Part shown: one piece after another, positions 9,310 through 52,653 of the stretch | How the letters are laid out: each line of letters begins with the position of its first letter | How positions within the stretch are numbered: the first letter of the stretch is position 1 | Source of the DNA: Deltaproteobacteria bacterium | GTDB taxonomy: Bacteria > Myxococcota_A > Polyangia > Fen-1088 | Assembly (NCBI GenBank): GCA_033763315.1 | Contig: JANRKS010000007.1 | Coordinates: 122,073 to 186,072 of the forward strand | Reading direction: 5' to 3' | DNA: 64,000 nt | Translations under genes and position numbers: made by a program | The notes under the pieces: model-generated | What the model saw: the letters and a program-made list of their open reading frames with translations, nothing else | The model's database searches: none | Told to the model about the DNA's origin: nothing

Positions 9310-10446
9310 ATGAACAGGTTTTCTTTTCCCACTGACATTCAATTCGGCAACGGCGTGCGTGCGCGCGTCGGCGCACGCCTGCAGGCAGAGTCTGTGCGGC
9401 GGCCGCTCGTTGTCACCGACAAGGGCTTGGCCACCTTGCCGGCCGTGTTGGACCTGCAAAACGCACTGCGGAACGAAGGGCTGGCCACGGAGGTGTTCGC
9501 GGGCGTGTGGGGCAACCCGGTTAAGTCGCAGGTCTTGGCGGGCGTGGCGGCGTTTCGCGCCCACGCGGCTGACGGCATCGTGGGTATTGGCGGGGGCGCG
9601 GCGCTTGATGTGGCAAAAGCCATCGCGCTGATGGTGAATCACCCTGGTGATCTCTTCGACTACGAAGACGATTTGCCCGGTGCGCGGCCATTCGATCAAC
9701 CCATTCCGTTCTGGGTGGCCGTGCCCACCACGGCCGGCACCGGCAGCGAAGTGGGCCGCAGCGCCGTGATCTCGGATGATGAAACGCACGTCAAGAAGAT
9801 CATTTTCTCGCCGCGTTTGCTCGCCAAAGCCGTGTTTGCGGATCCTGAGCTAACGGTGGGCCTGCCCGCGCACATCACGGCCGCCACAGGTCTCGACGCG
9901 TTAACTCACAACATCGAAGCGTTCTTGGCTAAGGCGTTTCACCCGATCTGCGATGGCATCGCGCTTGAGGGCCTGCGCCTGGGCGCGATGCACTTGAAGC
10001 AAGCGGTGAAGGTGCCCACGGATCTCGAGGCACGCGCGGGCATGATGATGTCTTCGATGATGGGTGCGATCGCGTTTCAGAAGGGATTGGGCCTTGTGCA
10101 CTCCTGCGCACACGCTTTGGGAACTGTGTGCAACATGCACCACGGCTTGGCCAATGGCGTGATGATCGATCACGCGCTTGTGCACAACGTGGGCGTGGCC
10201 ACCGATAAGTTCGTGCGGATGGCGCAAACCGTGGGCATCAAGAATCCGGGACCAGAGGCGTTCATCGGTTGGCTGGAGACTTTGAAAGCCGACGTGGGCA
10301 TACCAGCCACGCTGACGGCCGCGGGTGTGGCGCCTGCCGCGCTGCAAACTTTGGTGGATGTGGCTGTGGCAGACGCCTGCCATCCCAACAACCCACGCCC
10401 CTGCACGCGGGAAGATTTCCAACACATACTGGAGGCGGCATTCTGA
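9310..10446 (+). CDS. iron-containing (group III) alcohol dehydrogenase
   Basis: GIGGGAALDVAKAIAL and VAVPTTAGTGSEV Fe-ADH motifs. Confidence 0.85.
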   Translation: MNRFSFPTDIQFGNGVRARVGARLQAESVRRPLVVTDKGLATLPAVLDLQNALRNEGLATEVFAGVWGNPVKSQVLAGVAAFRAHAADGIVGIGGGAALDVAKAIALMVNHPGDLFDYEDDLPGARPFDQPIPFWVAVPTTAGTGSEVGRSAVISDDETHVKKIIFSPRLLAKAVFADPELTVGLPAHITAATGLDALTHNIEAFLAKAFHPICDGIALEGLRLGAMHLKQAVKVPTDLEARAGMMMSSMMGAIAFQKGLGLVHSCAHALGTVCNMHHGLANGVMIDHALVHNVGVATDKFVRMAQTVGIKNPGPEAFIGWLETLKADVGIPATLTAAGVAPAALQTLVDVAVADACHPNNPRPCTREDFQHILEAAF

Positions 10447-11237
10447 TGGCTCCGCTACGAATCGGACTTTCGGCAAATCTCATCCACGCCGATCCCCAGC
10501 GCCCTTTGTTCAAAGGCAAGACGCTGAAGTTCGTGGAACAGCAACTGTCGCATTGGATCATGACCGAGGGAGCGCTCGCGTACATGGTCCCGTTGCCTCC
10601 CAGCGACGGCCAACTGGCGCTTGAAGCTTACGTGCAGGACCTGGACGCGCTTGTGCTTCAAGGTGGCGCCGACGTCTCTCCGGCAAGTTACGGTGAATTG
10701 CCGATGCGCCCTGAGTGGTCAGGCGATCAAGTGCGCGATGAGTATGAGATGGCTTTGATTCGGATGTTTCTGCAAGTCGGCAAACCCGTGCTGGGTGTGT
10801 GCCGCGGTTTGCAAATCCTAAACGTGGCCATGGGCGGCTCGCTTTATCAGGACATCAACACGCAGCTTGAGGGTTCGCGGGTGCATCGCGACTGGGAGAT
10901 CTACGATCAGAACTTCCACAACATCCGCATCGTTCGCCCATCCCATCTGGCCAAGCTTTATCCAACGACGGCGATTGGCCGCGTATGTTCCGTACACCAC
11001 CAAGCCATCAAAGCTTTGGGCAAGGGGTTGGTGGTGGAAGCCAGCTCTGTGGAAGACAACGTTGTGGAAGCGGTGCGCCTGACAGGACCCACGTGGGTTT
11101 ACGGCGTGCAATGGCATCCCGAGTGGCACGACGTGAACGACACATCTTTGATGGACAGCCGACCGCTGCTGCGTGACTTCCTCGCGGCTGCGGCGCAACG
11201 AAAAGCCGCAAGAGCGGGGACGAAGGCTCACACATGA
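10446..11237 (+). CDS. gamma-glutamyl-amide hydrolase, class I glutamine amidotransferase-like (PuuD/peptidase C26 family)
   Basis: ATG 10446 overlaps ADH stop (ATGA); GVCRGLQILNVAMGG nucleophile Cys; VHHQ His motif; ORF-track 5' extension from 10269 not used. Confidence 0.75.
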   Translation: MAPLRIGLSANLIHADPQRPLFKGKTLKFVEQQLSHWIMTEGALAYMVPLPPSDGQLALEAYVQDLDALVLQGGADVSPASYGELPMRPEWSGDQVRDEYEMALIRMFLQVGKPVLGVCRGLQILNVAMGGSLYQDINTQLEGSRVHRDWEIYDQNFHNIRIVRPSHLAKLYPTTAIGRVCSVHHQAIKALGKGLVVEASSVEDNVVEAVRLTGPTWVYGVQWHPEWHDVNDTSLMDSRPLLRDFLAAAAQRKAARAGTKAHT

Positions 11238-12610
11238 CAACAGCCGCGCTGCAAGTGTGGAACCCATCCACGGGACAAGTTGTGCAGACGCTTGAGGCGG
11301 ACACGCCGGAATCCGTGCAGCACAAAGTGGCCGCCGTCAAAGCGGGCAGCGCTGCGTGGGCCTCCACGCCTGTGTTCGAGCGATGCGAAACCCTCGCGCG
11401 GTTTCGACACTTGGTGGTCCAAAACGCCGACGAGTTGGCACACACCACCACGCTTGAAACGGGCAAGCCCATCTCGCAGGCGCGCAACGAAGTGAAAGCG
11501 TTCGATGCGCGCTTGGCGTTCTTTCTGGAGCACGCGGCCGCGGAACTGCAAGCGCGCGAGGTTCATCAAGAAGCGGGGCTGCACGAACGAATCACGTGGG
11601 AGCCATTGGGGGTGGTGGCGAACATCTCGGCCTGGAATTACCCCTATTTTGTGGGTGGCAACGTTTTTGTCCCCGCCCTGCTTACAGGCAACGCCGTGGT
11701 GTACAAACCCTCGGAGTTTGCGGCCAACACCGGCCGAAAGCTTGTGGACCTTTTGTGGCAAGCCGGTGTGCCCAAGGACGCGTTGGCACTGGTTATCGGC
11801 GGTGGCGCCGCGGGATCGGCTCTGTTGGAGTCCCCGATCAATGCCGTGTTTTTTACGGGCTCCTACGCCACAGGCGTGCGGGTGGCGGCGCAGGCGGCGA
11901 CTCACCTTTTGAAGGTGCAATTGGAGCTGGGTGGCAAAGATCCGATCTATGTCATGGAGGACGCCAACGTGGCGAGCGCCGCCGAAGCCACGGCCGACGG
12001 CGCCTTTTACAACGCAGGCCAAAGCTGCTGCGCGGTTGAGCGCTTATATGTGCACGAACGCATCTATGACGCCTTTGTTGAGCACTTCGTGAAAACCGTG
12101 GATGGCTTCGTGGTGGGCGATCCCATGGATCCCAAGACGTACATCGGGCCGCTGACGCGTGCCGCGCAGCTTGACGTTCTCGAAGCGCAGGTGGCGGATG
12201 CGCTGGCGCATGGTGCACGCGTGCTGCGCGGGGGGCAGCGGCTGCAACGGCCGGGGTTCTATTTTGCGCCCACAGTGGTGGCGGACGCCAACCACCAGAT
12301 GCAGCTGATGCGCGAAGAGAGCTTCGGCCCTGTCATAGGCATTCAGAAAGTGAGCTCCGACGACGAAGCGGCCGCACTTATGAAAGACACGCCGTATGGC
12401 TTGACCGCCGGCGTTTACGGCCAAGACCAAGGTCGCGCGATGAAGCTGCTCGGGCAGATGAACACCGGCTCGGTTTACTTTAACTGCTGCGACCGCGTGA
12501 GCCCCCGGCTGCCTTGGTCAGGGCGGGGGCACTCAGGCCTTGGCACAACGTTATCCACGCTCGGCATCGCCGCATTCTTGCAGCCGAAAGCGTGGCACCT
12601 TCGCGGCTAG
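11234..12610 (+). CDS. NAD(P)-dependent aldehyde dehydrogenase
   Basis: ELGGKDP and FYNAGQSCCAVERLYV catalytic Glu/Cys motifs; start overlaps upstream stop (ATGA). Confidence 0.85.
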   Translation: MTTAALQVWNPSTGQVVQTLEADTPESVQHKVAAVKAGSAAWASTPVFERCETLARFRHLVVQNADELAHTTTLETGKPISQARNEVKAFDARLAFFLEHAAAELQAREVHQEAGLHERITWEPLGVVANISAWNYPYFVGGNVFVPALLTGNAVVYKPSEFAANTGRKLVDLLWQAGVPKDALALVIGGGAAGSALLESPINAVFFTGSYATGVRVAAQAATHLLKVQLELGGKDPIYVMEDANVASAAEATADGAFYNAGQSCCAVERLYVHERIYDAFVEHFVKTVDGFVVGDPMDPKTYIGPLTRAAQLDVLEAQVADALAHGARVLRGGQRLQRPGFYFAPTVVADANHQMQLMREESFGPVIGIQKVSSDDEAAALMKDTPYGLTAGVYGQDQGRAMKLLGQMNTGSVYFNCCDRVSPRLPWSGRGHSGLGTTLSTLGIAAFLQPKAWHLRG

Positions 12611-12867
12611 CTGCCTATCAACAAAAGCTTGGGCTCATTGCGAACGGCGCGGCGAACTTCGATCAACGTCTCGTCGATGGGTGCTGGGTCGGTGGTGGAG
12701 ATCATGGAACTCATAGCGTCCGGTAACTTATCGCGTCGCTCTAGGCGACTTCACGGTGACAGGAATTGAGCGTGCCAGTTGATGTGGACCGGGCCTTGAA
12801 GAATTCAGCGGTTCGAAGGAAACCATCCGTTGGATCGCGAAGGTTGCGAGTGATTTGTGAACGCACC

Positions 12868-13689
12868 TTAAAACAGCCCAAGCTGCTTCTCGAAGGGGAT
12901 GGGCAGGACGCCGATGATGACCCATGGGTTTACTGCCACTTGGTGCCACTGCTGGGTGGTTCCGAGAAAGAGATGCAAATCCTTCTTTAGGAACTCGTCC
13001 ATGTACTTCTGCCGGACCTTTGCTATCGCCTTCGACTCATCGCCATTTGCCAATTGCAGGCAGTTCCGGTAGAGCGCACCGATCTCCCAGTCGAGGATCT
13101 GCTGCTCGCTCTTCTTGCCGGCGGCGTCTTCAAACCTGTACGAAAATTTGTATGGCAGCTTCGGGATCACCCTAAAAGTTTCTCGCCAGGCGTTGTCCTC
13201 GAATAGCTCATGCTGTCGTGAGGCCTCGCGCATCTCCTTGACCTTGTTGATATCCCACTCTCGTTCGTCCTCTTCGACCACGAACTCCAAGATGCGGGAG
13301 GGCTTAAATACGGCGAGCGAGATTTGGTTCGCCTTCGCACCCGCGATCAGCTCCTCGAGGTTATCGTAGACGCGCGCCTTCTTCAGAAGGATCTCGCGAC
13401 GCTCGCGCCAATTGTCGCCCGTGCTCATCTTGCCGACGGGCACCAGCTCGCGCTGATCCATGGGGCGAAAAGTCTCCGGGCGGATGTCCACCGTGTTGCG
13501 TTGGAGCCGGCACTCGACCCAGTCGTACTTACTGTACTGCTGCGTCTCATCGAGCCGTCGGAACGGGACCGGATAGATGCGCACCCAGCTCCCGTCCTCG
13601 CGGACACCGGCGGTACACACCGTCTCGCCATACTTCCGAGACAGCGTGGGGTACGTCTTGACGGTGATGAGAACTCGCTGCCTCTCCAT
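12868..13689 (-). CDS. hypothetical protein (274 aa) encoded directly downstream of the Panacea-like/DUF488 gene; no recognised domain
   Basis: ORF 12868..13782; ATG at 13689 (MERQRVLITVK...) chosen, 20 nt after upstream stop and 4 nt after a G9 tract; lower GC than flanking operons. Confidence 0.5.
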   Translation of the reverse strand: MERQRVLITVKTYPTLSRKYGETVCTAGVREDGSWVRIYPVPFRRLDETQQYSKYDWVECRLQRNTVDIRPETFRPMDQRELVPVGKMSTGDNWRERREILLKKARVYDNLEELIAGAKANQISLAVFKPSRILEFVVEEDEREWDINKVKEMREASRQHELFEDNAWRETFRVIPKLPYKFSYRFEDAAGKKSEQQILDWEIGALYRNCLQLANGDESKAIAKVRQKYMDEFLKKDLHLFLGTTQQWHQVAVNPWVIIGVLPIPFEKQLGLF

Positions 13690-13709: not shown

Positions 13710-14642
13710 TCAAAAGTGCTTGGCAGTGAGGTCCTCGCTGGCCTTGCCCGCGAGAGCTTCGGCGACACAATGGCGATGGCACTGGTTCGGCTGGTGCTCG
13801 TAGCAGGTCAGAGTTACGCGCTCGCCTGCATCAATCCAGTCCTCGATCTTCTTCAGCGCAGCCGCCTGCTTCGGAAGCCAGGTGCTCTCGTAGTGGGCAA
13901 AGAGCGCGTCGTAGTCGGCCTGCGTGTCGAGTGATTGCCGCTGCTCAGACGCGATACCGAGCTCGGGCAGGTGCTCATAGCGAATGCCGACGCCCTCGCA
14001 CCCGCGCGCGAGCGTGTTCTTCGAGAAGCCGTACTTCCGGCTTATGGGGTTTCGGCGTACGTCGCAGAGGAGCGTGACGCCGTGCTTGAGTAAGATGTTT
14101 AGGTAGCTTTCAAGCGTGTGGCCCTCGTAGCCGATGGTGCTCAGCGCAGGGCCAGTCGCTTTGGCGCGGACCGCGTTAATGCGGGCAAGCGTGGCGGCGT
14201 CACCTTTGAGGACACGCTCGGCGATCTCGCTGCGTGTCGCGAAAAACGGGAAGCGCCGATACGTATCGGCGACCAGTGCATCCCCGTGCAGACCGCGATG
14301 CCGCTTCGCAAATGCCGCGAGCTGCATGTCCGTCGTGCGGGCGATGATTTTCCGCCCCTCGGCAGTGATCTGCCAGCCGTCCAAATCCTCCAGCAGCCCG
14401 CGCTCGATTAGCTTGCGACGATCTGCGTAGGACGTGAACGAGAACGCGCCGAACTTATACGGGACGAAATCGTAGGGCGCCTCTGCCGTAGGCGCCTCCT
14501 GACAGTAGAGGAATAGCAGCTTTTGGAAGTCGAGCATGCCTGACGTGCCGCCCAGCGCATCCAGAAGCTGCAATAGCTGGCGCTGCCGCGAGAACAGCAT
14601 CGGCGACGTCGAACGGGTGGATGTGTGGGAGGTGCAATTCAT
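13710..14642 (-). CDS. fusion protein: N-terminal Panacea/SocA-like (DUF4065-like) domain + C-terminal DUF488 (YeaO-like) domain
   Basis: N-terminal FQKLLFLYCQ...YDFVPYKFGAFSF resembles the DUF4065 core (LQKLLYF...Y.YGP); C-terminal TIGYEGHTLESYLNILLKHGVTLLCDVRRNPISRKYGFSKNTLARGCEGVGIRYEHLPELG matches the DUF488 signature; alternative start near 14600. Confidence 0.55.
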   Translation of the reverse strand: MNCTSHTSTRSTSPMLFSRQRQLLQLLDALGGTSGMLDFQKLLFLYCQEAPTAEAPYDFVPYKFGAFSFTSYADRRKLIERGLLEDLDGWQITAEGRKIIARTTDMQLAAFAKRHRGLHGDALVADTYRRFPFFATRSEIAERVLKGDAATLARINAVRAKATGPALSTIGYEGHTLESYLNILLKHGVTLLCDVRRNPISRKYGFSKNTLARGCEGVGIRYEHLPELGIASEQRQSLDTQADYDALFAHYESTWLPKQAAALKKIEDWIDAGERVTLTCYEHQPNQCHRHCVAEALAGKASEDLTAKHF

Positions 14643-15236
14643 CCGGTTTGCTCTGGGCTTTGTCGCGGCACAGCCACGATTGGCTGCGGGAAAACTAATA
14701 AGGTTTGGTTAGTTAGACAAGTTTTCTCTGCCGGTGGCTTGCAATCTGCATTGTTTCGTAAGGGGACGCGAGGACAGCGGGTTCCGAGCGTGCCGCCGCC
14801 AAGACGTGCGGCCCTGACAGTAAGCCCGAGTGCGGGCGGCCTCACGGTCATTCAGTAGGTGACCATCATCGTTGACGACGAGACCTTGGGCGAAGACGCC
14901 CCGTTGCTCGCGCAGCCGCTTGCTGCCGCCACCGCTGGCCTGACCCAAGCCGGGCCTGCACAACGGCGCGCGCCCCTGCCCTTGGCCTTATCTGCCAACG
15001 ACTTGCCCAAAGCGATGGGTCACCTGTGCGCCAAGCATTTGAGCTTTAACCGCACGCAGCCACCCGTATGGCGGCTCGATTGGTGTAACTAACTTCCCCC
15101 GAAACGGTTCCCCCGATGGCCCTTGTCCGCCCCACGAAAATCACCCTCAGCTCCCTCTTTGACCGACCAATCCGCCCAGCTTCTCACGCGCCTTGCCGCC
15201 TCTCCCTTTGCTCCGCCCCGCCAAAACACCTTTGAT

Positions 15237-17159
15237 TTACCTATCGGCGTGCACCGGCAACTTCACCGACGGCGGAATCTGTAGAGTCTTGACGCCGCGG
15301 CCCCAGCAAATTGTCTCGCCCGAAGGCCGTTTTCCACACTCACTATCGGCGCCCATCCAAAAGGCTGTAAAGAGCCCTTTTTCCGGGTACGGCTGAGTTC
15401 CGTCATACTCGAAAAGATACGAGCGCGTGACGGCCCAGCCTCTTTCGTCCGCCTTTGTGAGAGCCCCACCGAAGTAGCGCCCATCGCTAGCGAAGTTGAC
15501 CAGCTCTTGGCCTGGCTCGCTTTCCTCCTTATCTCCCTTTCGGTTCATACAAATCATTCGCTTGTTGGCCGTCAAGCCGCACACGAAGTCAGCGCCACAA
15601 AGAATGTCGACGAAAGTGCCGGGAGGAACCTTGGGGGTGTCGCCCCAACAAACGATGTGACCGTCTTCCGCCAAAGCGCAGGCATGGACGTGTCGTTGGC
15701 TGTTGGCCAGCAATTCGTCTGTTTGTGAAATCCAACGACCGCCACCGCAAAGCTTCGTGTATCTTGCCGCAGGCACCTGTTCTTTGGCCCAATCGTGGCC
15801 TCGAACTTCAATGTGGCCATCAGGCATCAGCGACAGCGTCGCCAAGGGAGCTGGGTAGGCGGCCTTGGCGCCGGCCACAACAGACGCTTGCGTCCAACCA
15901 TCAACGGTAAAGCATTCAGGTTTTCCATCAACGGTGTCTCCGCACACGCCTTGTTCATGCACGTAGAGGTTGGAGAATCGCAAATCAGGAACGCGAAAAG
16001 GTGGAAAGGGTCTTTCTTGTCCACCACGCATGCAAGTGGCTCGGCCGTCCTTGAGCACCACGCACAGATTCGTCGCACTGCCCGCCATAGTCGCTACGTC
16101 GGGGTAGAATCCCGGCCCATCGCCCTGTACCGTGTGCACCCAGCACACAAGTGGGAAAGGTGCCTTTGAGGCGCTCGCTTCAACACCACAGCGAAGCGAG
16201 CTTTCGGCATGGCGATTTTCCGTGGGCGGGGTAGCTTGACCACGATCGTTGTAGCCCCAGCAGGCAACACGATCATCAGCTGCGATCGCACAAGTGTGTA
16301 AGGCTCCTGCCTGCACGTTCTTCCACTTGCCAGGAACCGCGACCGATTGGCCACACTCCCACTCAAGCTCTTTGCAAGGCGCCGTCGTTTTGCCGGCGCC
16401 CCAGCACGTCAGTTCGCCATCCATCGTGACGCCACAGGAATGATACCGGCCCGCTGTCACTTGTTTGAATTTGCCACGTGGCGGTTTACTTTGACCATGG
16501 CTGTTGGATCCGCCGCAGTGAACGGTTGAAGAAGCATCGAGAGCGCAAACGTGGTGACCGCCAACCGCTACCTGTGTGAACTTGCCTTCGAGTGCCTGGA
16601 CCCGCTCACAATACATCGTGCCGTCGGAGCGGATTGCACACGCGCCGAACTCGCCGCCTGCGATTGATATGAAGGGGCCTTTGATGGACTCGTCCTCTCC
16701 GACTGAACTGCTGATGTTTCCGTCGTCCTCAAGTATCCAGTCGTTCCTATTGTGATTTCCAGCAGGGACCTCTACCCAGTCCTTTACGGCGCGTGTTTTG
16801 ATACGACCGAAGACTATGGAACCTGCGTGATCTGGTTCCGAGAGAAAGGAACTGCGTTGCTCGGTTATCAGCACCGGGCCTTCGTCGATGCATGACAATT
16901 TTTTTAGCATGATGACTGGTGCCTCGACGAAATCAGGCATACCCCAAACCACCGCGCTTCCGTCCTTGCGCAAGCCGCAGCTGACGTGTTGGCCAGCCGA
17001 CAGCTGAGTCAATTGAATGCCAAAAGTCACACCAGTCACTCCGGTGCCCGCAGGCACTGACGTGGAGGCTTGCCCTGTTCCTTGACGAAGGTTGGGTTGC
17101 AGCGGCTTATTTCTGCAACCCGTGACAAGGCAGATTACAACCAGCAAAAAAACTCTCAA
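15237..17159 (-). CDS. lipoprotein with RCC1-like beta-propeller repeats
   Basis: lipobox LVTGC; repeated H.CA...DG...CWG.N..GQ units (e.g. YHSCGVTMDGELTCWGAGKT, HTCAIAADDRVACWGYNDRGQA). Confidence 0.7.
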   Translation of the reverse strand: MRVFLLVVICLVTGCRNKPLQPNLRQGTGQASTSVPAGTGVTGVTFGIQLTQLSAGQHVSCGLRKDGSAVVWGMPDFVEAPVIMLKKLSCIDEGPVLITEQRSSFLSEPDHAGSIVFGRIKTRAVKDWVEVPAGNHNRNDWILEDDGNISSSVGEDESIKGPFISIAGGEFGACAIRSDGTMYCERVQALEGKFTQVAVGGHHVCALDASSTVHCGGSNSHGQSKPPRGKFKQVTAGRYHSCGVTMDGELTCWGAGKTTAPCKELEWECGQSVAVPGKWKNVQAGALHTCAIAADDRVACWGYNDRGQATPPTENRHAESSLRCGVEASASKAPFPLVCWVHTVQGDGPGFYPDVATMAGSATNLCVVLKDGRATCMRGGQERPFPPFRVPDLRFSNLYVHEQGVCGDTVDGKPECFTVDGWTQASVVAGAKAAYPAPLATLSLMPDGHIEVRGHDWAKEQVPAARYTKLCGGGRWISQTDELLANSQRHVHACALAEDGHIVCWGDTPKVPPGTFVDILCGADFVCGLTANKRMICMNRKGDKEESEPGQELVNFASDGRYFGGALTKADERGWAVTRSYLFEYDGTQPYPEKGLFTAFWMGADSECGKRPSGETICWGRGVKTLQIPPSVKLPVHADR

Positions 17160-31115: not shown

Positions 31116-33587
31116 CTAGATCATCGGTGGATCCATCTCGCGCTCATGATGGCGATGTCTTGCAATCGCCTCCACGAACGTTGGCAAGGCCTTGTCTGCG
31201 GCCACGTCTCGCCCCAGCAGCAGGCCTGGGTCAGGGTTGCCGGAAGGCAAAGTGGCGGGAACACCCGCGGCTTGCACCAAATCACAACCAGCACCCAACG
31301 CCAGGATGGGTTTGGCGTGGCGGTACTGGTCCTTGATGAATTCAAGCGCGTGCCCTACGCGGCCCAGCAACGTGCTGGCCGCTTTGCCATCGGGCACCAC
31401 AAGCGCGTCGAACAACACGCTGGGCATGGTTTCGAATGTCACCTCCACCTGCAGCGAACCGCCTTCTTCCGTTGTGACCGAGCCAAGGCGCGGCCCCACG
31501 TAACGCGGCACTGCGCCTTGTTCAGTCAGCGCGGCGTGGATGGATGTCACGGTGTCACCGCGGATGCCATCGGCGACCATGATGGCCACCCGTCTCGTCG
31601 CGATGCCGGTCTGGCCAGGCGAGGTGTAAAGCGACAAGGCAGGTGAAGCTTGCACTTCAGACTTCACCGGGCGCTTTAACACCTTCGGCATGGGGGCAGG
31701 CAACGCCATACCGAGGCCGGCGGCCACACTCTTGCCAAGGTTTGCATCTACGTTGAGCAGCATCGACACAACGCGCTCGCGCACGGCAGGCGTTTGCACC
31801 TTGGTGAGCTCGAAGCGGAACGCACGAATGATGTGAGCTTTCTCGACGGCAGATTGGCTGTTGTAGAACAACGTGGCTTGGCTGTAGTGGTCAGCGAAGC
31901 GCTCTGGTTTGCCGCGCACCTTATCGTCATCAATGGGCTCGCGGAACGAGGTGAAGCCCATCTTGCCTGCTTGGAAAGGGCAACCACCGCCGAGCGAGTT
32001 TGGCTCGTACGCCACGCGCCCGCGGTTGATCGCCTGCCGGTGCATGCCATCGCGGTTGTTGTTGTGCACCTGCCGCACGGACGCGTTGATGGGGATCTCA
32101 TGAAAGTTGGGCCCGCCCAAACGCGAGATCTGCGTGTCTTGGTACGAATGAATGCGGCCGGCAAGCAAAGGATCGTTCGAGAAATCGATGCCGGGCACCA
32201 CGTGGGCGGCACAGAACGCCACTTGTTCGGTTTCGGCGAAAAAATTGTCGGGGTTGCGGTTGAGCACCATCTTGCCCACCGGCGTAAGCGGCACAAGTTC
32301 CTCCGGCACCAGCTTGGTGGCGTCGAGCACGTCGAAACTGAACGACTCCGCTTGCGCCTCTGAGAACATCTGAAAGCTCAGCTCGAACTCCGGGTAGGCG
32401 CCGGCTTCGATGGCTTCCCACAAGTCACGGCGGTGAAAGTCGGGATCGGCGCCGCAGATCTTCACGGCTTCATCCCAATCGAGCGAATGGGTGCCCGCCA
32501 GAGGCCGCCAGTGAAATTTCACGAAGGTGGCTTTGCCGTTGGCGTCGATGAGACGGAAGGTATGAACGCCGAACCCATCCATCATGCGATAGCTGCGGGG
32601 TATCGCGCGGTCCGACATGGCCCACAACAACATGTGCGTGGACTCCGGCATCAACGAGACAAAATCCCAGAACGTATCGTGCGCTGTGGCGGCCTGGGGC
32701 ATGGCGAAGTGCGGCTCTGGCTTCGCGGCGTGGACCAAGTCCGGGAACTTCATGGCGTCTTGAATGAAGAACACGGGAATGTTGTTGCCCACCAAATCCC
32801 AGTTGCCCTCGTCCGTATAGAATTTCACGGCAAAACCACGCACGTCACGGACGGTGTCAGCCGAACCACGTTCGCCAACGACGGTGGAAAATCGCGCGAA
32901 CACCGGCGTTCGCTTGCCGGCTTCCGCAAAGATGGAAGCGCGAGTAACCGAGGCCATCGACTTGTAACATTCGAAATAACCATGGGCCGCTGAGCCCCGC
33001 GCGTGCACAACACGTTCAGGAATGCGCTCGTGATCAAACTGCGTGATCTTCTCGCGCAAGATAAAATCTTCAAGTAAGGCAGGACCGCGCAAGCCCGCCT
33101 TGAGAGAGTTTTGGTTGTCAGCGACGGGAACGCCTTGATTGGTCGTTAATATTTGATCGGTGGAATCCGTGCGCACACGATCAAGCGGCAGATTGCCGGG
33201 ATTGAAACTGAGGGTCACGTCGCCCGAACCCACCTTGGTAGAGGACGTCTCTTCGGTGAGCGTGCTGCCCAACACGCGTGGGTGAGGCGCCTTGGCTGTG
33301 GCACCCGTTTGGGGATCGTTCGAGGCTTTGCCGTGCTCGCCCGCCTTGTTTGGATTGAACGGCATGGCAGCGGCGAGTTCATTCACGCCTTGCATTTTCT
33401 CCAGGTACGCATCGCCCGCGGCTTGGCCAGCATCGCTGCGTGCGGGTCCACTAACCGTTGCCCGCGCGCTGGTCGCTGCCGCCGCCGCTTTGCCACTCGT
33501 GTTTTGCGGTGGCCGCTTGGTTGACGTCTTCGTCGCTGCCGCTGCCTTTGTTGCCACCTTCTTGCTCGCCATTTTCTTCGTCGCCAT
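31116..33587 (-). CDS. katE: large-subunit catalase HPII
   Basis: [23 protein letters not shown] catalase active-site motif; 823 aa with C-terminal extra domain typical of large catalases; Lys/Ala-rich N-terminal tail. Confidence 0.85.
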
Positions 33588-43949: not shown

Positions 43950-44198
43950 GTGAATGTGTTAGCTGTGAGCTTGATGCGTAGCCTGACACATGGGTTGGTG
44001 CTGGGTTTGCTGACCCTTGCAGGTGGCAGTGCCTGCGCCTTGAGGCAGCCTCCCCCGGTTTCGCCGGCCCGGCATCTGTGCCTCACCGACTGCGCGCGCG
44101 GCAAGGATCGGTGCTTGGTAGAGGCCCCCACGGCCTCGGCTATTTTCGCCTGCGACGAACGCGCCAGCGCCTGCGTCGCAAGCTGCCCTCACCCGTGA
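43950..44198 (+). CDS. small secreted Cys-rich protein (hypothetical)
   Basis: 82-aa ORF with signal-like LVLGLLTLAGGSACA and six Cys; 8 nt upstream of next gene on same strand. Confidence 0.35.
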   Translation: MNVLAVSLMRSLTHGLVLGLLTLAGGSACALRQPPPVSPARHLCLTDCARGKDRCLVEAPTASAIFACDERASACVASCPHP

Positions 44199-44206
44199 GT
44201 GTGAAC

Positions 44207-44905
44207 ATGTCGCATCCTGACTCCCTGCCAGCGGCAGCCATCGCGGCGTCTTTGCTTTTGATTGCCAGCTGCGTTCCAGCCGCCTACACCATTCCGAGAC
44301 CCGACCAGCCTCACGCCATCGTGAAGATGAGGCGGGTTTATCATGGTGCATCTGGCGAAACCCTCAGCGAGACAGCAGGGATCGATGGCCATCCGTTGTT
44401 TGCGCAGGCGAGGCCGAGCTCGCAGGCTGCGCCTGATACGGCGGTGATGCGTGTTCACCCTGTGGCGGCCGACTGGCAGTGGTCGTCGGTGTTCTGGCAT
44501 GTGGAAATGCGCTGGGTCCAGGAGGCCTACACCGTCTATACCTCGAGGCTTGTCTCCGAAACCAACTATCGCTCTGAATCCTATAGTTGCGGTAGTTACT
44601 CAAGTCGGGGCTACGCTTCGAGCACATGCTACCGATCTGTGCCGTACACAACGATGGTCACGAAGCAAGTGCCTGAAACCCACTATCGCACCGTCCAGCG
44701 CCCCGTCTCTGTGACGGATGCAGACTGCCCTAGAGCGTTTTCATTTCACCCCACCGTGAATGCGGTCTATCTGCTCGAATACAGCTACATGGGGCCAGGC
44801 GTGTGCTCAATCGCGTGCCTTATCCAGAGCTCAGACAGCGTGGGGGAAGCTCAAAACCACCCATGCTCTCCCGCCGAGTTCGGACCGCCTCGACGCCGCC
44901 ATTAG
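44207..44905 (+). CDS. hypothetical lipoprotein
   Basis: ATG 44207 (MSHPDSLPAAAIAASLLLIASC...) with lipobox LIASC; Tyr/Ser-rich middle region; no recognised domain. Confidence 0.45.
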   Translation: MSHPDSLPAAAIAASLLLIASCVPAAYTIPRPDQPHAIVKMRRVYHGASGETLSETAGIDGHPLFAQARPSSQAAPDTAVMRVHPVAADWQWSSVFWHVEMRWVQEAYTVYTSRLVSETNYRSESYSCGSYSSRGYASSTCYRSVPYTTMVTKQVPETHYRTVQRPVSVTDADCPRAFSFHPTVNAVYLLEYSYMGPGVCSIACLIQSSDSVGEAQNHPCSPAEFGPPRRRH

Positions 44906-46641: not shown

Positions 46642-47208
46642 ATGTCGCAGCCCAACGAGACCCGTAACCCTTGGACCACGAGATCGATCGAAACACGTTA
46701 CGAAAACCCGTGGATTCGAGTCGACCACCACGACGTCCTCACGCCTGCTGGCACCGTGGGCATGTATGGCGTGGTCAATTTCAAGAACGTGGCGGTCGGC
46801 GTGGTGCCGATGGATGCAAACGGCAACACGTGGCTCGTGGGACAGTACCGATACCCCCTGGGCCGCTATAGCTGGGAGATCTGTGAAGGCGGGGGGCCCA
46901 TAGGCGCAGACGTTTTGGAATCCGCCAAACGCGAGCTGCACGAAGAGCTGGGCATGCAAGCCGCCCGCTGGGACAAGCTATTTGAGATGGATCTCTCTAA
47001 TTCGGTCACCAACGAACGCGCCGTGGTGTTTGTGGCGCGCGAGCTGACGATGGGCACGGCGCATCCGGAAGAAACCGAAGAGTTGGCGGTGCGCAAAATT
47101 CACCTCGCTCAACTTTACGAAGAGGTGTGTGCGGGCAAACACCGCGACAGCATGACTGTGGCGGCGGTGCTGCGTTTGCGGCTGATGCACCTGGAAGGAA
47201 CCCTTTAA
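46642..47208 (+). CDS. NUDIX hydrolase (ADP-ribose pyrophosphatase-like)
   Basis: Nudix box ESAKRELHEELG; 188 aa; 6 nt upstream of the UvrA-like gene. Confidence 0.8.
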   Translation: MSQPNETRNPWTTRSIETRYENPWIRVDHHDVLTPAGTVGMYGVVNFKNVAVGVVPMDANGNTWLVGQYRYPLGRYSWEICEGGGPIGADVLESAKRELHEELGMQAARWDKLFEMDLSNSVTNERAVVFVARELTMGTAHPEETEELAVRKIHLAQLYEEVCAGKHRDSMTVAAVLRLRLMHLEGTL

Positions 47209-47214
47209 CGCCTT

Positions 47215-50200
47215 ATGAAAAGCCCTGTAGATCGCGCGATTTTGGTGCAAGGCGCCCGCCAGAACAACCTCAAGAACATTTCTGTTCGCATTCCGATCGG
47301 GGCCGTCACCGCCGTGACAGGCGTGGCCGGCGCCGGCAAATCGTCGCTCGCGTTCGACATTCTTTATGCCGAGGGCCACCGGCGCTATGTAGAAACGTTC
47401 AGCGCGTACGCACGGCAGTTCCTGGAGCGATTGGATCGCCCCAAAGCCGAACGCGTGGTGGGCGTATTGCCTGCTGTGGCGATTGACCGCACGGCGCCTG
47501 TGCGCACGTCACGCTCCACGGTGGGCACAATGACGTCGATCGCGGACTACCTGCGGGCGCTCTACGCGCGCGCCGCCGTTTTGCGCTGTGATGTATGTGG
47601 CAAGCCTGTGCAGCGGGCAAGTGCGGATGGCATTGCCACGCACTTGTTGTCGACCGCCGCCGGTCGCACGGCCTTGCTGACGTTCGTTGTCCCAAGTGGC
47701 AAGCTCAAGCCCAAGCTGATTCGTGAAGCGTTCGCGCGCAATGGCTTTTCCCGCGTGTGGGAAGACAACAACGTCGTCAAACTCGATGACGCCAAGCTCG
47801 CGCCTGCGGATGGGCAGCTTGTGGTGGTGCTTGATCGCGTGCGGCTGCCCTCCCCCGCCCAGCAAACGGATGACGATCGCAAGCGCTTGGGCGATTCCAT
47901 CGAAGCGTCTTTGCGCTGGGGCCGCGGCGACATGGCCGTGCGCTTTGAAGGCGACAACAACGTGCAATCGTTTAGCGAAAGCTTGCGTTGTTGCGGCGTC
48001 ACGTATGCCGATCCAACGCCCGCCACCTTCTCGTTCAACAACCCCGTGGGCGCTTGCATCACGTGCAAAGGCTTTGGGCGGACGATGGCAATCGATCCCA
48101 ACCTTGTGGTGCCCGATCCGCGCCTTTCGATCAAAGAGGGCTGCATCAAACCGATGCAGTCGCCTTCCTATAAGGAATGCCAAGACGATCTTGAACGCTT
48201 CTGCAAACGCGCCGGCATCGATATGACGGTGCCCTGGGCCAAGCTGCCGGCGGCCTCGCAGAAGCGCGTGTGGCAGGGCGAGCCAGGGGCGCTCACCAAT
48301 TGGAAGAAGCATTGGTATGGCGTCGATGGCTTCTTCGCGTGGCTTGAAGGGCGCAGCTACAAGATGCACGTGCGGGTGCTGCTCTCGCGCTACAGGCACT
48401 ATCTGCCGTGCACGGCCTGCGGCGGCGCACGCTTGCAGCCAGAGGCGTTGCGCTTTTCCATCGAAGGGCAAACGCTGCCGCAACTCGAGGCCGCCACAAT
48501 CGCGAATGTGGATGCGTTTTTTGCCAGCTGGAAGAATCGCCCGCAGGACGCCGCCACAGCCTTGGTGCTGCAAGAGCTGACCTGCCGCTTGCGCTTCCTT
48601 GTGGACGTGGGGTTGGGATACCTCACACTTGGCCGCCAATCGCGCACGCTCTCGGGCGGTGAAGCACAACGCGTGGGTTTGGCCACCGCGCTCGGCAGCG
48701 CTTTGACCAGCACACTTTATGTTTTGGACGAACCATCGGTGGGTTTGCACGCGCGCGATGCAGACCGCTTGGTTGGCGTACTTGCGCGGCTGGCGGAAAA
48801 AGACAACGCCGTGGTGGTGGTGGAACACGATCCGGTGCTGATTCGATCGGCCGACCACGTGATCGATTTGGGCCCCGGCCCTGGCCCCGAAGGCGGCGAA
48901 GTGATCTATGAAGGGCCCGTGCAAGGCTTGTTGGGCCACCCGCGCTCGCAAACAGCGCCCTACTTGCAGGGCCACGCGATGCGGCCGCAGCGTCAGCCGC
49001 GCACGCTCGACTTTAAACACGCCATCGCGATTGAGGGCGCCACCGAAAACAACTTGCAGAACGTGTCTGTGAAGGTGCCGCTTGGCGGCCTTGTGTGCGT
49101 CACGGGCGTCAGCGGCTCAGGCAAATCGACCTTGGTGGATCAAGTGCTTTACCGCAACTTGCGACGACATCTCGGGCAACCCGAATCGGAATTGGGCGCC
49201 TGTGCTGGGTTGCAAGTGTTCTTGCCGCCAGGCAAGGCATTGCAAGACGTAGTGTTCGTGGATCAAACGCCGCTTGGCAGCAGTGGGCGCGTCAACGCCG
49301 CAACATACCTGGGTGTGTTGGATCCAATCCGCAAGGTGTTCGCGAGTACCCAGGCGGCGAAGGACGCAGACGTAAGTGCGTCGGCCTTCTCGTTTAATTC
49401 GGCCGTGGGCGCGTGCCCTTTGTGTGGCGGCGCCGGCTTTGAAAAGATCGAATTGCAATTCCTGCCCGACGCGCACGTGCGCTGCCCTGCGTGTGATGGC
49501 AAACGGTTTCGTCCAGAAACGTTGGCGATTAAATACGAAGGTTACGACATTGCTGAAGTGTTAAACCTTTCGGCATTGGAAGTCAGCGCGCTGTTCAAAC
49601 ATAACAAGCCGCTGGTGCGTGGCTTGGCACCGCTCATCGATTTGGGCCTTGGCTACTTGCCGTTGTCGCAAGCGGCGCCGTCGCTTTCAGGCGGCGAATC
49701 GCAGCGGTTGAAGCTGGCCGCCTATCTGGCGGGTGCCACCACGGCCAAGCCGACGCTTTACATTCTTGATGAGCCGACCACAGGCCTTCACCCCGCCGAC
49801 GTGGCGAAGCTGCTGCAAACGTTGGACCGTTTGGTGGCGGCGGGGCACAGCGTGGTGGTGGTTGAACACAATCTTCAAGTGGCTTGGGCGGCGGATTGGT
49901 TGATCGATCTTGGCCCTGAAGGAGGGGATCAGGGTGGGCGCATCATTGCGCAAGGCACGCCGGAGGCTTTGAGCCAAACCAGCAGCGCCACAGGCGTGGC
50001 CCTGGCGCAGGCTGTACGCAAACAATCCAACACTGTGGCGCGCGCAAGCGAGGCGGCCGCAAAGTATGTGGTGTTCGAGCGGCCGATCGAAATCGAGGGC
50101 GCACGCGAGCACAATCTGAAGAACGTGGCGGCGACGTTTCCGCGCAACAGATTCATCGCCGTCACGGGCGCCTCCGGTTCGGGCAAATCCACGTTGGCGT

Positions 50201-52653
50201 TCGATGTACTTTACGCCGAGGGCCAACGGCGGTTCTTGGACTGTCTTTCCACATATGTGCGCCAGTTTGTGCGGCCTTTGGCACGGCCCGATGTGGATCG
50301 CGTCGAAGGTGTGCCACCCACCGTGGCGCTTGAACAAAAGCTGACACAAGGCTCGTCACTCTCCACCGTGGGCACAGCGTCCGAGGTATACCACTACCTG
50401 CGTTTGGTCTACGCGTGGTTGGGCACGCCCCATTGCCCCAAGTGTGGTCTGGCCGGCGAAGGCGTGGATGCCAAGGCCCTGGTGGGTCGCATCACGTCGC
50501 AGCACGAGGGCCGCGCCATCACGTTGCTGGCGCCGCTTATCCGCAAACGTAAAGGCGCGCACACCGAAGCGATGGCGGCCACCGTGAACCTGGGCGTCGC
50601 ACAACTGCGCGTGGACGGCACCGTCCATATGGCCAAAGCGTTGCCCAAGCTCGATCGCTACCAAGTGCATGATGTGGAGGCGGTGGCTGCATCCATGACA
50701 GCCAAAGACTGGAAAGGCGACGGCGAGGCCACGCTCAAAGCGGCCGTGACGCGCGCCCTCGAACTGGGCGGCGGCCACATCATCGTGGCCAGCGGCGGTC
50801 TGGATCACCACTATTCAACGTTGCGCTCATGCCCGAACTGCGGCTCGGGCCTGCCTGTTCCCGATCCGCGTTTGTTCACGTGGAGCCAGAAGTTCGGCGC
50901 GTGCCCCACGTGTGAAGGCAGGGGCACAACGGAGCCGCATGACGAAGACGTTGATGAAAACAGCGAAACCTTCGTCGGCCGCGCCGAAACAGAGCCGTGC
51001 GTCGCGTGTGACGGCAGCCGCTTGGGTCCGGCCGCGCGATCCGTGCGGATCGCCAACGAACATATTGGCCAGGTGGCGGCGCGTTCGGTGCGTGCGTTGC
51101 AAACGTGGGTGAAGGACACTTTACGCGCCAACCTGCGTATTCCCGTCGAATTGCAAGAGGCTGTGTTGCCCGAGATCGAACGCCGTCTGCAAGTGCTGGA
51201 TCAACTGGGCCTCGGGTACCTAACACTGTCGCGCGGGGCTCACACGCTTTCAACAGGCGAAGCGCAGCGCGTACGGATCGTGGCGCAACTGGCTTCGAAC
51301 CTGCGCGGCGTGTGTTACGTCTTAGATGAACCAACGGTGGGTTTGCACCCGCGCGACGCCGCAGCGCTAACTGACGCTCTTTTGGAGCTACGCGATCGGG
51401 GCAACACTGTTGTTGTGGTGGAACACGATGAAGCCGTGATTCGCCGTGCGGATCACATCATTGATTTAGGGCCGGGCGCTGGCCGGCATGGCGGGCACAT
51501 TGTTGTGGCGGGCAGCCCGGCCACCGTGGCGGCAAACACGCGGTCCATCACGGGCGCGTGGCTACGCGGCCATGGCAACGTGCCACCACCTCCGCGCCGG
51601 TCACTGACCGATGGGCCGCGCCTCGCCTTGCGCGGAGCGAACTTGCACAACCTTTCCAATGTGAACGTCGATGTGCCGGTGGGCCGTTTGGTGTGCGTCA
51701 CGGGCGTCAGCGGCTCGGGTAAATCAACGCTCGTGCGGCGGGTGTTGTTCTCGGCCGTCAAAGCCAAGCTGCAACGCAAGAAATTGCCTGCGTGCGCATC
51801 GGGCCTCACAGGCACAGAGCACGTGGATCGCGCACTTGTTGTGGATGAAGCGCCCATTGGCCGCACTCCACGGTCAGTGCCGGCCACCTACGTGGACATC
51901 CTGACACCGATTCGTTCGCTGTTTGCCGAAACACCCGACGCACGCGCCCGCGGTTTCAAAGCCAACCGCTTTTCGTTCAACGTCAAAGGCGGACGCTGCG
52001 AAAAGTGCGAAGGCCAAGGCCGTTTGAAAGTGAGCATGGCGCTGTTGCCCGACGTCTACATTCCGTGCGCCACGTGCAATGGCGCGCGTTTTAATCCCGA
52101 TACGTTAGCGGTGCGCTACAAAGGCAAAACGATCGCCGACGTGTTGGCGATGTCGGTGGAAGACGCGGTGGTGTTCTTCGAGAGCGCGCGTGCCATCGCG
52201 AATCCCTTGGCGTTCCTCAACGACATTGGCCTCGGCTACCTGCAGCTGGGTCAGCCCAGCCCCACGCTTTCGGGCGGAGAAGCGCAACGAATCAAGCTGG
52301 CGGCGGAACTTTCATTCTCCGGCCAAGGTCGGTCGTTGTTCGTGTTGGATGAACCCACCACAGGACTTCACATGGCCGATGTGGCAAAGCTCATCGCGGC
52401 TTTGCAAAAGCTTGTGGATCGCGGCGACACCGTGGTTGTGATTGAACACAACGTGGATGTGATCCGTGCCGCGGATTGCCTTATCGACATGGGCCCCGAA
52501 GGCGGCGTCGAGGGCGGCCAGGTTGTGGCGTGGGGAACCCCCGAAGAGGTGGCGGCGTGTCCGGCTTCACGAACCGCAGCTTTCCTTGGCCTTCACCCGC
52601 GGGTGGCACCAAAGAAGACAGCACGAACAATGAAGCCACGCACCCTGCAGTGA
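47215..52653 (+). CDS. tandem-duplicated UvrA-like ABC ATPase (two complete UvrA units in one 1812-aa polypeptide)
   Basis: four Walker A sites (GVAGAGKSSLAFD ~aa35, GVSGSGKSTLV ~640, GASGSGKSTLAFD ~970, GVSGSGKSTLV ~1500); four LSGGE signature motifs; CxxC zinc-finger pairs in each half; UvrA-typical ILYAEGQRRYVE..SAYARQF segment present twice. Confidence 0.85.
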   Translation: MKSPVDRAILVQGARQNNLKNISVRIPIGAVTAVTGVAGAGKSSLAFDILYAEGHRRYVETFSAYARQFLERLDRPKAERVVGVLPAVAIDRTAPVRTSRSTVGTMTSIADYLRALYARAAVLRCDVCGKPVQRASADGIATHLLSTAAGRTALLTFVVPSGKLKPKLIREAFARNGFSRVWEDNNVVKLDDAKLAPADGQLVVVLDRVRLPSPAQQTDDDRKRLGDSIEASLRWGRGDMAVRFEGDNNVQSFSESLRCCGVTYADPTPATFSFNNPVGACITCKGFGRTMAIDPNLVVPDPRLSIKEGCIKPMQSPSYKECQDDLERFCKRAGIDMTVPWAKLPAASQKRVWQGEPGALTNWKKHWYGVDGFFAWLEGRSYKMHVRVLLSRYRHYLPCTACGGARLQPEALRFSIEGQTLPQLEAATIANVDAFFASWKNRPQDAATALVLQELTCRLRFLVDVGLGYLTLGRQSRTLSGGEAQRVGLATALGSALTSTLYVLDEPSVGLHARDADRLVGVLARLAEKDNAVVVVEHDPVLIRSADHVIDLGPGPGPEGGEVIYEGPVQGLLGHPRSQTAPYLQGHAMRPQRQPRTLDFKHAIAIEGATENNLQNVSVKVPLGGLVCVTGVSGSGKSTLVDQVLYRNLRRHLGQPESELGACAGLQVFLPPGKALQDVVFVDQTPLGSSGRVNAATYLGVLDPIRKVFASTQAAKDADVSASAFSFNSAVGACPLCGGAGFEKIELQFLPDAHVRCPACDGKRFRPETLAIKYEGYDIAEVLNLSALEVSALFKHNKPLVRGLAPLIDLGLGYLPLSQAAPSLSGGESQRLKLAAYLAGATTAKPTLYILDEPTTGLHPADVAKLLQTLDRLVAAGHSVVVVEHNLQVAWAADWLIDLGPEGGDQGGRIIAQGTPEALSQTSSATGVALAQAVRKQSNTVARASEAAAKYVVFERPIEIEGAREHNLKNVAATFPRNRFIAVTGASGSGKSTLAFDVLYAEGQRRFLDCLSTYVRQFVRPLARPDVDRVEGVPPTVALEQKLTQGSSLSTVGTASEVYHYLRLVYAWLGTPHCPKCGLAGEGVDAKALVGRITSQHEGRAITLLAPLIRKRKGAHTEAMAATVNLGVAQLRVDGTVHMAKALPKLDRYQVHDVEAVAASMTAKDWKGDGEATLKAAVTRALELGGGHIIVASGGLDHHYSTLRSCPNCGSGLPVPDPRLFTWSQKFGACPTCEGRGTTEPHDEDVDENSETFVGRAETEPCVACDGSRLGPAARSVRIANEHIGQVAARSVRALQTWVKDTLRANLRIPVELQEAVLPEIERRLQVLDQLGLGYLTLSRGAHTLSTGEAQRVRIVAQLASNLRGVCYVLDEPTVGLHPRDAAALTDALLELRDRGNTVVVVEHDEAVIRRADHIIDLGPGAGRHGGHIVVAGSPATVAANTRSITGAWLRGHGNVPPPPRRSLTDGPRLALRGANLHNLSNVNVDVPVGRLVCVTGVSGSGKSTLVRRVLFSAVKAKLQRKKLPACASGLTGTEHVDRALVVDEAPIGRTPRSVPATYVDILTPIRSLFAETPDARARGFKANRFSFNVKGGRCEKCEGQGRLKVSMALLPDVYIPCATCNGARFNPDTLAVRYKGKTIADVLAMSVEDAVVFFESARAIANPLAFLNDIGLGYLQLGQPSPTLSGGEAQRIKLAAELSFSGQGRSLFVLDEPTTGLHMADVAKLIAALQKLVDRGDTVVVIEHNVDVIRAADCLIDMGPEGGVEGGQVVAWGTPEEVAACPASRTAAFLGLHPRVAPKKTARTMKPRTLQ

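Follow-up and report, generated by a model that had tools for sequence, protein, structure and literature searches.

Does the 1812-aa UvrA-like protein encoded on contig JANRKS010000007.1 of a Deltaproteobacteria bacterium (assembly GCA_033763315.1) represent a genuine fusion of two UvrA units and, if so, does it belong with the canonical UvrAs of nucleotide excision repair (NER), with the UvrA2-like accessory proteins or with neither? We took up this question in a 64,000-nt stretch of that contig (positions 122,073 to 186,072 of the forward strand; hereafter the window, from whose first letter all coordinates are counted), for which an initial annotation made from the letters alone had described the double uvrA gene, a NUDIX hydrolase gene ahead of it and a 6-nt spacing between the two. 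Both open reading frames (ORFs) and the spacing lie exactly where that annotation placed them. The tandem gene (47215..52653, plus strand) is one uninterrupted ORF of 1812 aa plus stop with an ATG start, and the two units of its product are diverged paralogues with complementary losses.

The ORF scores above the cut-offs of both NCBIfam UvrA equivalog models (NF001503, 1928.8 bits against a cut-off of 1147, in three stretches; TIGR00630, 1886 bits), matches every solved UvrA with E-values down to 2e-253 and has the Walker A, Walker B and signature motifs four times each. Profile scores and four intact motif sets thus bear out the proposal that two UvrA-like units, together carrying four ATPase modules, are fused in frame, and the refutation once envisaged, halves devoid of signature motifs, falls away. 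The units are 33–45% identical; aligned to each other they reach ~560 bits, and aligned to canonical UvrAs they score higher (728 bits for half 1, 818 for half 2). They are joined by a weakly conserved linker of variable length (50005..50085, plus strand; aa 931–957), which spans 21–63 aa in the family alignment that we built from 98 of the best 120 database relatives and has a mean column conservation of 0.30 against ~0.8 in the nucleotide-binding domains (NBDs). The other suspected refutation, a sequencing or assembly artefact joining two adjacent uvrA genes, has a negligible probability, because the uninterrupted two-unit frame recurs in the 98 aligned homologues, in 22 complete loci of GTDB species genomes and on finished Ralstonia and Burkholderia replicons; frame and unit order are the same in more than 120 independently assembled homologues, and the halves belong to different, reproducible clades. 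NCBI already holds the identical protein, labelled 'MAG: excinuclease ABC subunit UvrA [Deltaproteobacteria bacterium]', and no second UvrA-like sequence was found in the window beyond the tandem gene.

Half 1 (47215..50004, plus strand; aa 1–930) is a complete unit like those of the class I UvrAs, with NBD-I, NBD-II, a UvrB-binding domain and an insertion domain. In the alignment of each half to E. coli UvrA that the initial annotation had proposed, it covers residues 4–930 in a single tblastn piece at 40% identity, and residues 1–945 of the protein align end to end with positions 26–956 of Clostridium thermocellum UvrA (9gxk, E 1e-217). We built AlphaFold2 models for each half separately; that of half 1 (predicted local distance difference test, pLDDT, 85.3; predicted template modelling score, pTM, 0.77) superimposes on Geobacillus UvrA 2r6f_A with template modelling (TM) scores of 0.85/0.89. 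The UvrB-binding domain of this half (47599..47988, plus strand; aa 129–258) is confidently modelled and passes PF17760 at 32.4 bits against a cut-off of 23.3. Its insertion domain (48067..48408, plus strand; aa 285–398) forms a 114-aa loop between the two CxxC pairs of Zn module 2, matches PF17755 with 54.4 bits over profile positions 1–69 of 110 and is modelled at pLDDT 85–94. The corresponding Zn2 loop is 106–140 aa long in all 98 relatives, and the clade of N-terminal units described below keeps all eight positions that are at least 75% conserved in canonical insertion domains. In half 1, the second cysteine pair of Zn module 1 is reduced to 'CC'; we considered this as a family hallmark and rejected it, as it occurs in only 2 of the 98 sequences (this protein and one other), the remaining relatives having CxxC, and at the first pair even E. 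coli UvrA has no CxxC.

Half 2 (50086..52650, plus strand; aa 958–1812) retains a UvrB-binding domain and has no insertion domain. It aligns to E. coli UvrA over residues 4–299 and 405–936, skipping 300–404, and to Geobacillus UvrA 2r6f in two blocks (chain positions 24–309 and 397–952). The expectation of two UvrA-size units therefore holds, though the second is shorter than had been supposed (~855–868 aa), because the insertion domain is missing and not because its ends are ragged. Likewise, of the suggestion that each unit may carry both accessory domains, the UvrB-binding domain proved to be present in both halves and the insertion domain in half 1 only. The half-2 UvrB-binding domain (50446..50829, plus strand; aa 1078–1205) scores 65.9 bits on PF17760 and keeps its fold (pLDDT 86–94), next to a complete Zn module 1. 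Zn module 2 also keeps both CxxC pairs, here enclosing an acidic stretch of only 28 residues (TTEPHDEDVDENSE...), and Pfam scoring of the accessory regions gave no PF17755 match in half 2. This short acidic loop (50914..50997, plus strand; aa 1234–1261, EGRGTTEPHDEDVDENSETFVGRAETEP) falls below pLDDT 50 and is the sole disordered stretch of the half-2 model (pLDDT 85.8, pTM 0.81) away from the chain termini. The loop measures 6–46 aa in 98 of 98 relatives and 14–49 aa in most of the double UvrAs from GTDB. The best fold matches of half 2 are class I UvrAs, with TM scores of ~0.75; class II structures score lower.

The residues on which E. coli UvrA depends show how the functional determinants are divided between the units. 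In that protein, the ATPase lysines are K37 and K646, DNA binding needs R712/R722/R724/R730, removal of residues 131–248 (the UvrB-binding domain) abolishes NER, and the R216A/E222A substitutions disrupt the UvrB/Mfd interaction surface (Manelyte et al. 2010, PMC3025350). Without residues 290–400 (the insertion domain), incision of short substrates remains intact, damage specificity on plasmid DNA is lost and repair is biased to the Mfd-dependent pathway (PMC3025350). We mapped these determinants onto the present protein and the 98-member alignment. The equivalents of K37 and K646 are lysine in 98 of 98 sequences in both units, as are the four Zn3 cysteines per unit cysteine, so that both C-terminal zinc fingers are intact; the Walker B and signature motifs are likewise invariant or almost so among the 98. 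The UvrB contact pair is differently disposed: the R216 equivalent is R224 in half 1 (Arg in 91/98) and T1173 in half 2 (Arg in 49/98), and that of E222 is E230 in half 1 (Glu in 98/98) and T1179 in half 2 (Glu in 28/98), the register in half 2 being anchored by the ALELGGG / ALELSGG motif. The DNA-binding arginines show the opposite bias. At these positions, half 1 has R706, K716, A718 and A724, counted as two of four, and half 2 has four of four; the R730 equivalent is arginine in none of the 98 N-units and in all 98 C-units. The Ralstonia and Burkholderia double proteins introduced below carry the same residue asymmetry. A reciprocal pattern is conserved from Myxococcota to Ralstonia, with the insertion domain and the R216/E222 pair on the N-unit side and the full arginine set on the C-unit side.

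The two UvrB-binding domains have each kept a different part of the canonical sequence: the N-terminal motifs (RKG-HT, RVDG, LDR--HD) persist in the clade of C-terminal units and the C-terminal VVDR...RLxDSxE helix in that of N-terminal units. Neither domain seems to be decaying, since they are about equally conserved in the family (0.67 in half 1, 0.65 in half 2), and the two halves as wholes are under similar purifying selection. The Pfam score, which favoured half 2, was at one point taken as a guide to the functional UvrB-binding domain; it was dropped, as the contact-pair residues point to half 1. The third signature motif, LSTGE in this protein, is LSTGE or LATGE with an invariant threonine in the 98 relatives and LSGGE in relatives from Burkholderiales and Verrucomicrobiota; it is confined to a Myxococcota/Acidobacteriota subclade, and we rejected it as a family hallmark.

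Set against the solved class I UvrAs (E. coli; Geobacillus 2R6F/3UWX; T. maritima 3PIH; M. tuberculosis 3ZQJ; C. thermocellum 9GXK), each unit presents two intact NBDs of the ATP-binding cassette (ABC) type, a C-terminal zinc finger, Zn module 2 and a UvrB-binding domain, with half 1 also carrying the insertion domain. The differences are that one 1812-aa chain with diverged units replaces a homodimer of ~940-aa chains, that the insertion domain and, in this protein, the R216/E222 pair are missing from half 2, and that only two of the four DNA-binding arginines remain in half 1. Class II UvrAs lack the UvrB-binding domain and Zn module 1 (PMC9328131, PMC3167621) and act without UvrB and UvrC (PMC9328131). 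Their representatives (D. radiodurans UvrA2 2VF7, DrrC, Ecm16 7SH1) are, as UvrA-derived accessory ABC ATPases, relatives in sequence and fold. However, both units here have a UvrB-binding domain above the Pfam cut-off, and class II keeps the insertion domain that half 2 has lost. The initial annotation had left a choice between canonical NER and a UvrA2-like function; neither half is of class II, because both carry the UvrB-binding domain, and the protein is better described as an asymmetric composite.

To place the two units in a wider phylogeny, we split two-unit proteins at the third Walker A motif and computed a neighbour-joining tree with the single UvrAs of the same sample and E. coli UvrA (834 well-occupied columns). 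The N-units of proteins with an insertion domain in the first unit and none in the second form one clade (h1; 34/40 bootstraps) and their C-units another (h2; 38/40), each spanning Myxococcota, Acidobacteriota, Burkholderiales, Verrucomicrobiota, Spirochaetota and Binatia. Half 1 of the present protein falls in h1 and half 2 in h2, within a single ORF. The separation of N- and C-units into cross-phylum clades indicates that these tandem UvrAs descend from a single ancient fusion or from a gene pair, likewise ancient, and spread afterwards. Three apparently single genes inside the h1/h2 clades (L032, L033, L038) are doubles truncated by contig ends. A Verrucomicrobiota metagenome-assembled genome (MAG; L043, JBBQRQ010000009.1) encodes an h1-like gene (10001–13162) and an h2-like gene without insertion domain (14134–16962) as separate ORFs; the two lie ~950 bp apart, with small unrelated ORFs between them, one of which looks BON-domain-like by eye. 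An Akkermansia muciniphila MAG (CAMDGV010000064.1) has a stand-alone unit without insertion domain in the h2 clade (L039:9875-12775, Zn2 loop 38 aa), and no h1-like gene was found in the 10 kb upstream, the contig ending 240 bp downstream. In one clade member from Binatia (L020), the C-unit still has a full-length loop, so that loss of the insertion domain may postdate the fusion.

The initial annotation had held the arrangement to be rare, a view that did not survive searches of protein databases, GTDB and PLSDB. The best 120 database relatives (57–79% identity) are all 1763–1885 aa long, and their named sources are Myxococcota, Polyangia, Anaeromyxobacter oryzisoli, Vicinamibacteria and other Acidobacteriota. 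Among representatives of 50%-identity clusters, 128 of the 150 best half-2 matches reach at least 1500 aa (1533–2343 aa), in a ranking by half 2 that favours two-unit proteins. Many of these representatives measure only ~1550–1690 aa, and their best match begins around residue 270–300; they could be a separate tandem class built from shorter, class-II-like units. GTDB species genomes yielded at least 22 complete two-unit genes, at least five truncated by contig ends and at least one split pair among the 597 confirmed UvrA loci listed; ~28/597 is indicative only, as the sample is pattern-biased (one search pattern being typical of h1) and not a census. Among the matches listed, doubles occur in Burkholderiales (Xenophilus azovorans DSM 13620, Caenimonas sedimenti, Thauera, Bordetella) and also in Verrucomicrobiota, Spirochaetota, Binatia, Fibrobacterota and Planctomycetota. 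A PLSDB search gave 223 records in which a single place matches at least 80% of the 1812-aa query, 134 of them from Ralstonia; these include the ~2-Mb Ralstonia solanacearum megaplasmid and secondary replicons of Burkholderia. Tandem UvrAs are therefore abundant and phylogenetically widespread, and the gene studied here is an ordinary member of a little-studied, routinely annotated family, the architecture of which we did not find described in the searchable literature, though reviews that possibly cover tandem UvrAs lay outside it.

The replicon-borne proteins of R. solanacearum (QHB61293.1, 1945 aa, megaplasmid) and Burkholderia (UTP27479.1, 1964 aa), annotated simply as 'uvrA: excinuclease ABC subunit UvrA', have the same unit order, are ~45% identical to ours over 98–99% of its length and share the deletion of the insertion domain in the second unit (Zn2 loop 49 aa). 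They differ in being ~130–150 aa longer, in having LSGGE instead of LSTGE as third signature and in having no NUDIX neighbour. Both stand outside the tree, in which the Burkholderiales doubles of the h1/h2 clades are L006–L012, L015, L017, L022, L024 and L028. The Cupriavidus metallidurans genome has a full NER set and, on CHR2, a 'second excinuclease gene uvrA2' (PMC2864759); this gene (Rmet_4549) is probably of the same kind, a link drawn through the statement of the genome paper. Other two-unit UvrAs are more distant. The 1809-position double-UvrA model NF001885 / PRK00635 likewise describes a ~1800-aa two-unit UvrA and matches our protein in three stretches, but with 1152.3 bits against a cut-off of 3054; all sampled double UvrA lineages stay below that cut-off (1132–1361 bits). 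Since the score is so far under the cut-off, our protein is of a different tandem lineage from the NF001885 type, the seed sequences of which we take to be chlamydial. Two Planctomycetota proteins (L029:9953-16981, 2343 aa; L053:9977-17251, 2425 aa) also join two units in one chain, but neither unit has lost its insertion domain, and at the C-terminus the chain runs on for several hundred residues past the second unit; their halves are each other's sisters (22/40 bootstraps), which points to an independent duplication.

How might such a composite work? We posit, with a probability of roughly 55%, that the two units pack against each other like the protomers of a UvrA dimer and make the protein an obligate asymmetric sensor, in which the N-unit supplies the insertion domain and UvrB/Mfd docking, the C-unit the principal patch for DNA binding. 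Under this proposal, which draws on the distribution of domains and residues, the units would pair within one polypeptide as canonical protomers do, so that a single chain would serve as an obligate asymmetric 'dimer' that scans DNA with ATP. Damage would be clamped and discriminated with a single insertion domain, and UvrB, possibly also Mfd, would be recruited mainly via the N-unit, giving a one-sided loading complex. The adjacent h1-like and h2-like genes of the Verrucomicrobiota split pair suggest that the two unit types cooperate. There is also a structural precedent for one-sided UvrB loading in PDB 9ga3, M. tuberculosis UvrA2 with one UvrB, which is among the fold matches of the halves. 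By analogy, we further think that the host probably uses the tandem protein as an accessory sensor and has another UvrA besides, because in Burkholderiaceae such genes lie on secondary replicons of genomes with a full NER set on the chromosome.

Several observations weigh against this asymmetric sensor. Half of the family keeps an arginine at the half-2 R216 position and the UvrB-binding domains of the two halves are overall about equally well conserved, so two-sided UvrB binding may occur in the family. The half-1 UvrB-binding domain scores lower than its half-2 counterpart on PF17760 (32 vs 66 bits), lacks the N-terminal RKGE-type motif and, in this protein, lies beside the collapsed cysteine pair of Zn module 1. 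The stand-alone Akkermansia gene implies that the C-unit type apparently works without a fused partner. No LexA box of five types with fewer than two mismatches was found upstream of the NUDIX gene, and no uvrB, uvrC or mfd was seen among the window ORFs screened, though no search aimed at them was made.

A more tentative elaboration, which we would not back at even odds, is that subfunctionalisation followed the ancient fusion, leaving docking and the insertion domain to the N-unit and the DNA patch to the C-unit, such that a single UvrB is loaded in fixed orientation and the C-unit domain binds another partner. It is possible, though unlikely, that the protein is instead an accessory paralogue that acts outside UvrABC, performing the class-II-like, ATP-driven removal of DNA-bound toxins, intercalators or proteins without UvrB, its UvrB-binding-domain folds being kept for other partners or structural reasons. 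The siting of the Burkholderiaceae genes on secondary replicons, in genomes whose chromosome has a complete NER set, would fit this, as would the independence of class II UvrAs from UvrB and UvrC (PMC9328131), the lost contact pair in half 2 of this protein, the lack of an SOS box upstream and the variable neighbourhoods, which in those inspected never include uvrB or uvrC. Yet class II is defined by loss of the very domain, together with Zn module 1, that both units keep here, the folds resemble class I structures more closely than class II ones, the window ORFs screened include no neighbouring biosynthetic cluster, and the near-invariant R216/E222 equivalents of half 1 (Arg 91/98, Glu 98/98) are hard to explain without UvrB/Mfd docking. 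Alternatively, the units could pair between polypeptides (h1-h1′ and h2-h2′, or domain-swapped) in a four-unit, eight-ATPase assembly that bridges or scans two DNA segments. Canonical UvrA units do homodimerise, the stand-alone h2-like unit of Akkermansia presumably does so too, and a linker of 21–63 aa permits either topology. We nevertheless regard this as improbable: complementary losses would be expected of an h1 and an h2 that function as one pair, whereas an h2-h2′ pair would be without insertion domain and UvrB contacts and an h1-h1′ pair without half of the DNA-binding arginines, and the fusion itself and the adjacent split pair also point to an interaction between h1 and h2.

The neighbouring NUDIX gene raises another alternative, a two-gene module in which it and the double UvrA would handle ADP-ribosylated DNA or clear ADP-ribose or damaged nucleotides released in repair. 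The gene (46642..47208, plus strand; 188 aa, ATG start) encodes a protein that is probably of the ADP-ribose pyrophosphatase / NudE-NudF type: it matches PF00293 (E 3.7e-10), only weakly NCBIfam NudE (57 bits against a cut-off of 169), and among solved structures it comes closest to ADP-ribose pyrophosphatases (1mk1, E 2e-15; NudF and the T. thermophilus ADPRase are further matches). Its Nudix box retains the REx2EE core (RELHEELG), with the first glutamate of the box replaced by Ala-Asp. Its TAA stop codon (47206–47208) is followed by the 6-nt spacer CGCCTT (47209..47214, plus strand, read from the sequence) and the uvrA ATG, 15 nt 5′ of which lies the purine-rich GGAAGGA. A promoter scan found no sigma-70-like promoter, and terminator-like sites occur at chance level (12 found, 10.2 expected), none of them between NUDIX and uvrA. 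Co-transcription of the pair in this genome is thus plausible, the genes being on the same strand, 6 nt apart and without a terminator-like site above chance between them, and the proposed co-expression holds in that sense. The idea of a functional module does not. A 76%-identical relative (L002) does have the NUDIX gene directly upstream of its tandem uvrA, with the same neighbours, a major facilitator superfamily (MFS) transporter and a phosphatase, but in a 73%-identical relative it lies 5 kb off with five genes between, near 60–62%-identical relatives it is absent, and tblastn found no homologue in 80 GTDB loci, nor was one present in the two annotated Ralstonia/Burkholderia regions inspected. 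As the linkage is limited to the two closest relatives and absent further out, NUDIX pairing is a feature of a narrow lineage and probably not part of the machine; the tree and the neighbourhoods of homologues, the examination of which had been suggested, thus give separate h1 and h2 clades and a NUDIX link that is local. Add to this that the enzyme is not a MutT-type sanitising one, and the module becomes very unlikely, being largely refuted at the family level. Returning to the asymmetric sensor, its gene would in this lineage probably be co-transcribed with the NUDIX gene, a pairing that may be a local accident of gene order.

Upstream, the tandem gene also has an MFS transporter, an unassigned ORF and a purple acid phosphatase as neighbours; two genes downstream encode FG-GAP repeat proteins. 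We also considered the MADS anti-phage system of PADLOC and rejected it, since the matches (mad3, 527 bits; mad8, 221 bits) are at the level of a single NBD and come without a MADS locus, which would be a multigene mad1–8 array with methyltransferase and nuclease partners; the two neighbours scanned (the NUDIX gene and the ORF at 44078–44905) had no PADLOC matches. The mad3 (PDLC04135) and mad8 (PDLC04140) models are UvrA-NBD-like and are likely to yield false positives in defence-system scans. Elsewhere in the window, 951–4064 (plus strand) encodes a 1037-aa DnaE-type polymerase with PHP, pol III alpha, finger, HHH_6 and OB domains, of a size and layout as in the error-prone DnaE2/ImuC-like polymerases; the ORF upstream of it (10–891) is a GGDEF diguanylate cyclase and not ImuB, and no adjoining imuA-imuB cassette is visible. 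A large-subunit (HPII-type) catalase is encoded at 31116–33587 (minus strand; Catalase 599 bits, Catalase_C, and DJ-1_PfpI at the C-terminus). Other tandem uvrA loci have different surroundings. Unlike the window, the locus of a 62%-identical relative (L004, JGI contig Ga0496020_000035) has genes for repair and oxidative damage within a few kb of the tandem uvrA (L004:1678-2385 and L004:11663-13720), namely a glycosylase of the uracil-DNA glycosylase (UDG) family, MsrA/MsrB and a RecQ helicase. On the R. solanacearum megaplasmid (CP047139.1), a 1833-aa 'WGR domain-containing protein' (L086:261-5762) is encoded directly upstream of the double uvrA and is itself preceded by an M48 metalloprotease. 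WGR domains are also found in PARP-type DNA-damage sensors.

The gene itself is an ordinary one, already deposited and annotated as UvrA; it is the asymmetry shared across its family that makes a modestly interesting lead for the mechanism of NER. Tandem UvrAs are common in phyla of soil and freshwater and on the secondary replicons of well-studied Burkholderiaceae, and among their hosts are genetically tractable bacteria such as Ralstonia, Burkholderia and Anaeromyxobacter. The reciprocal pattern of retained determinants yields a testable prediction, that of a one-sided UvrA-UvrB loading complex, which bears on the structural work on UvrA2B1 versus UvrA2B2 assemblies. If the asymmetry is indeed hard-wired in these proteins, they would offer a ready system for asking why the canonical UvrA2B2 complex has two UvrBs and how asymmetry and strand choice arise.

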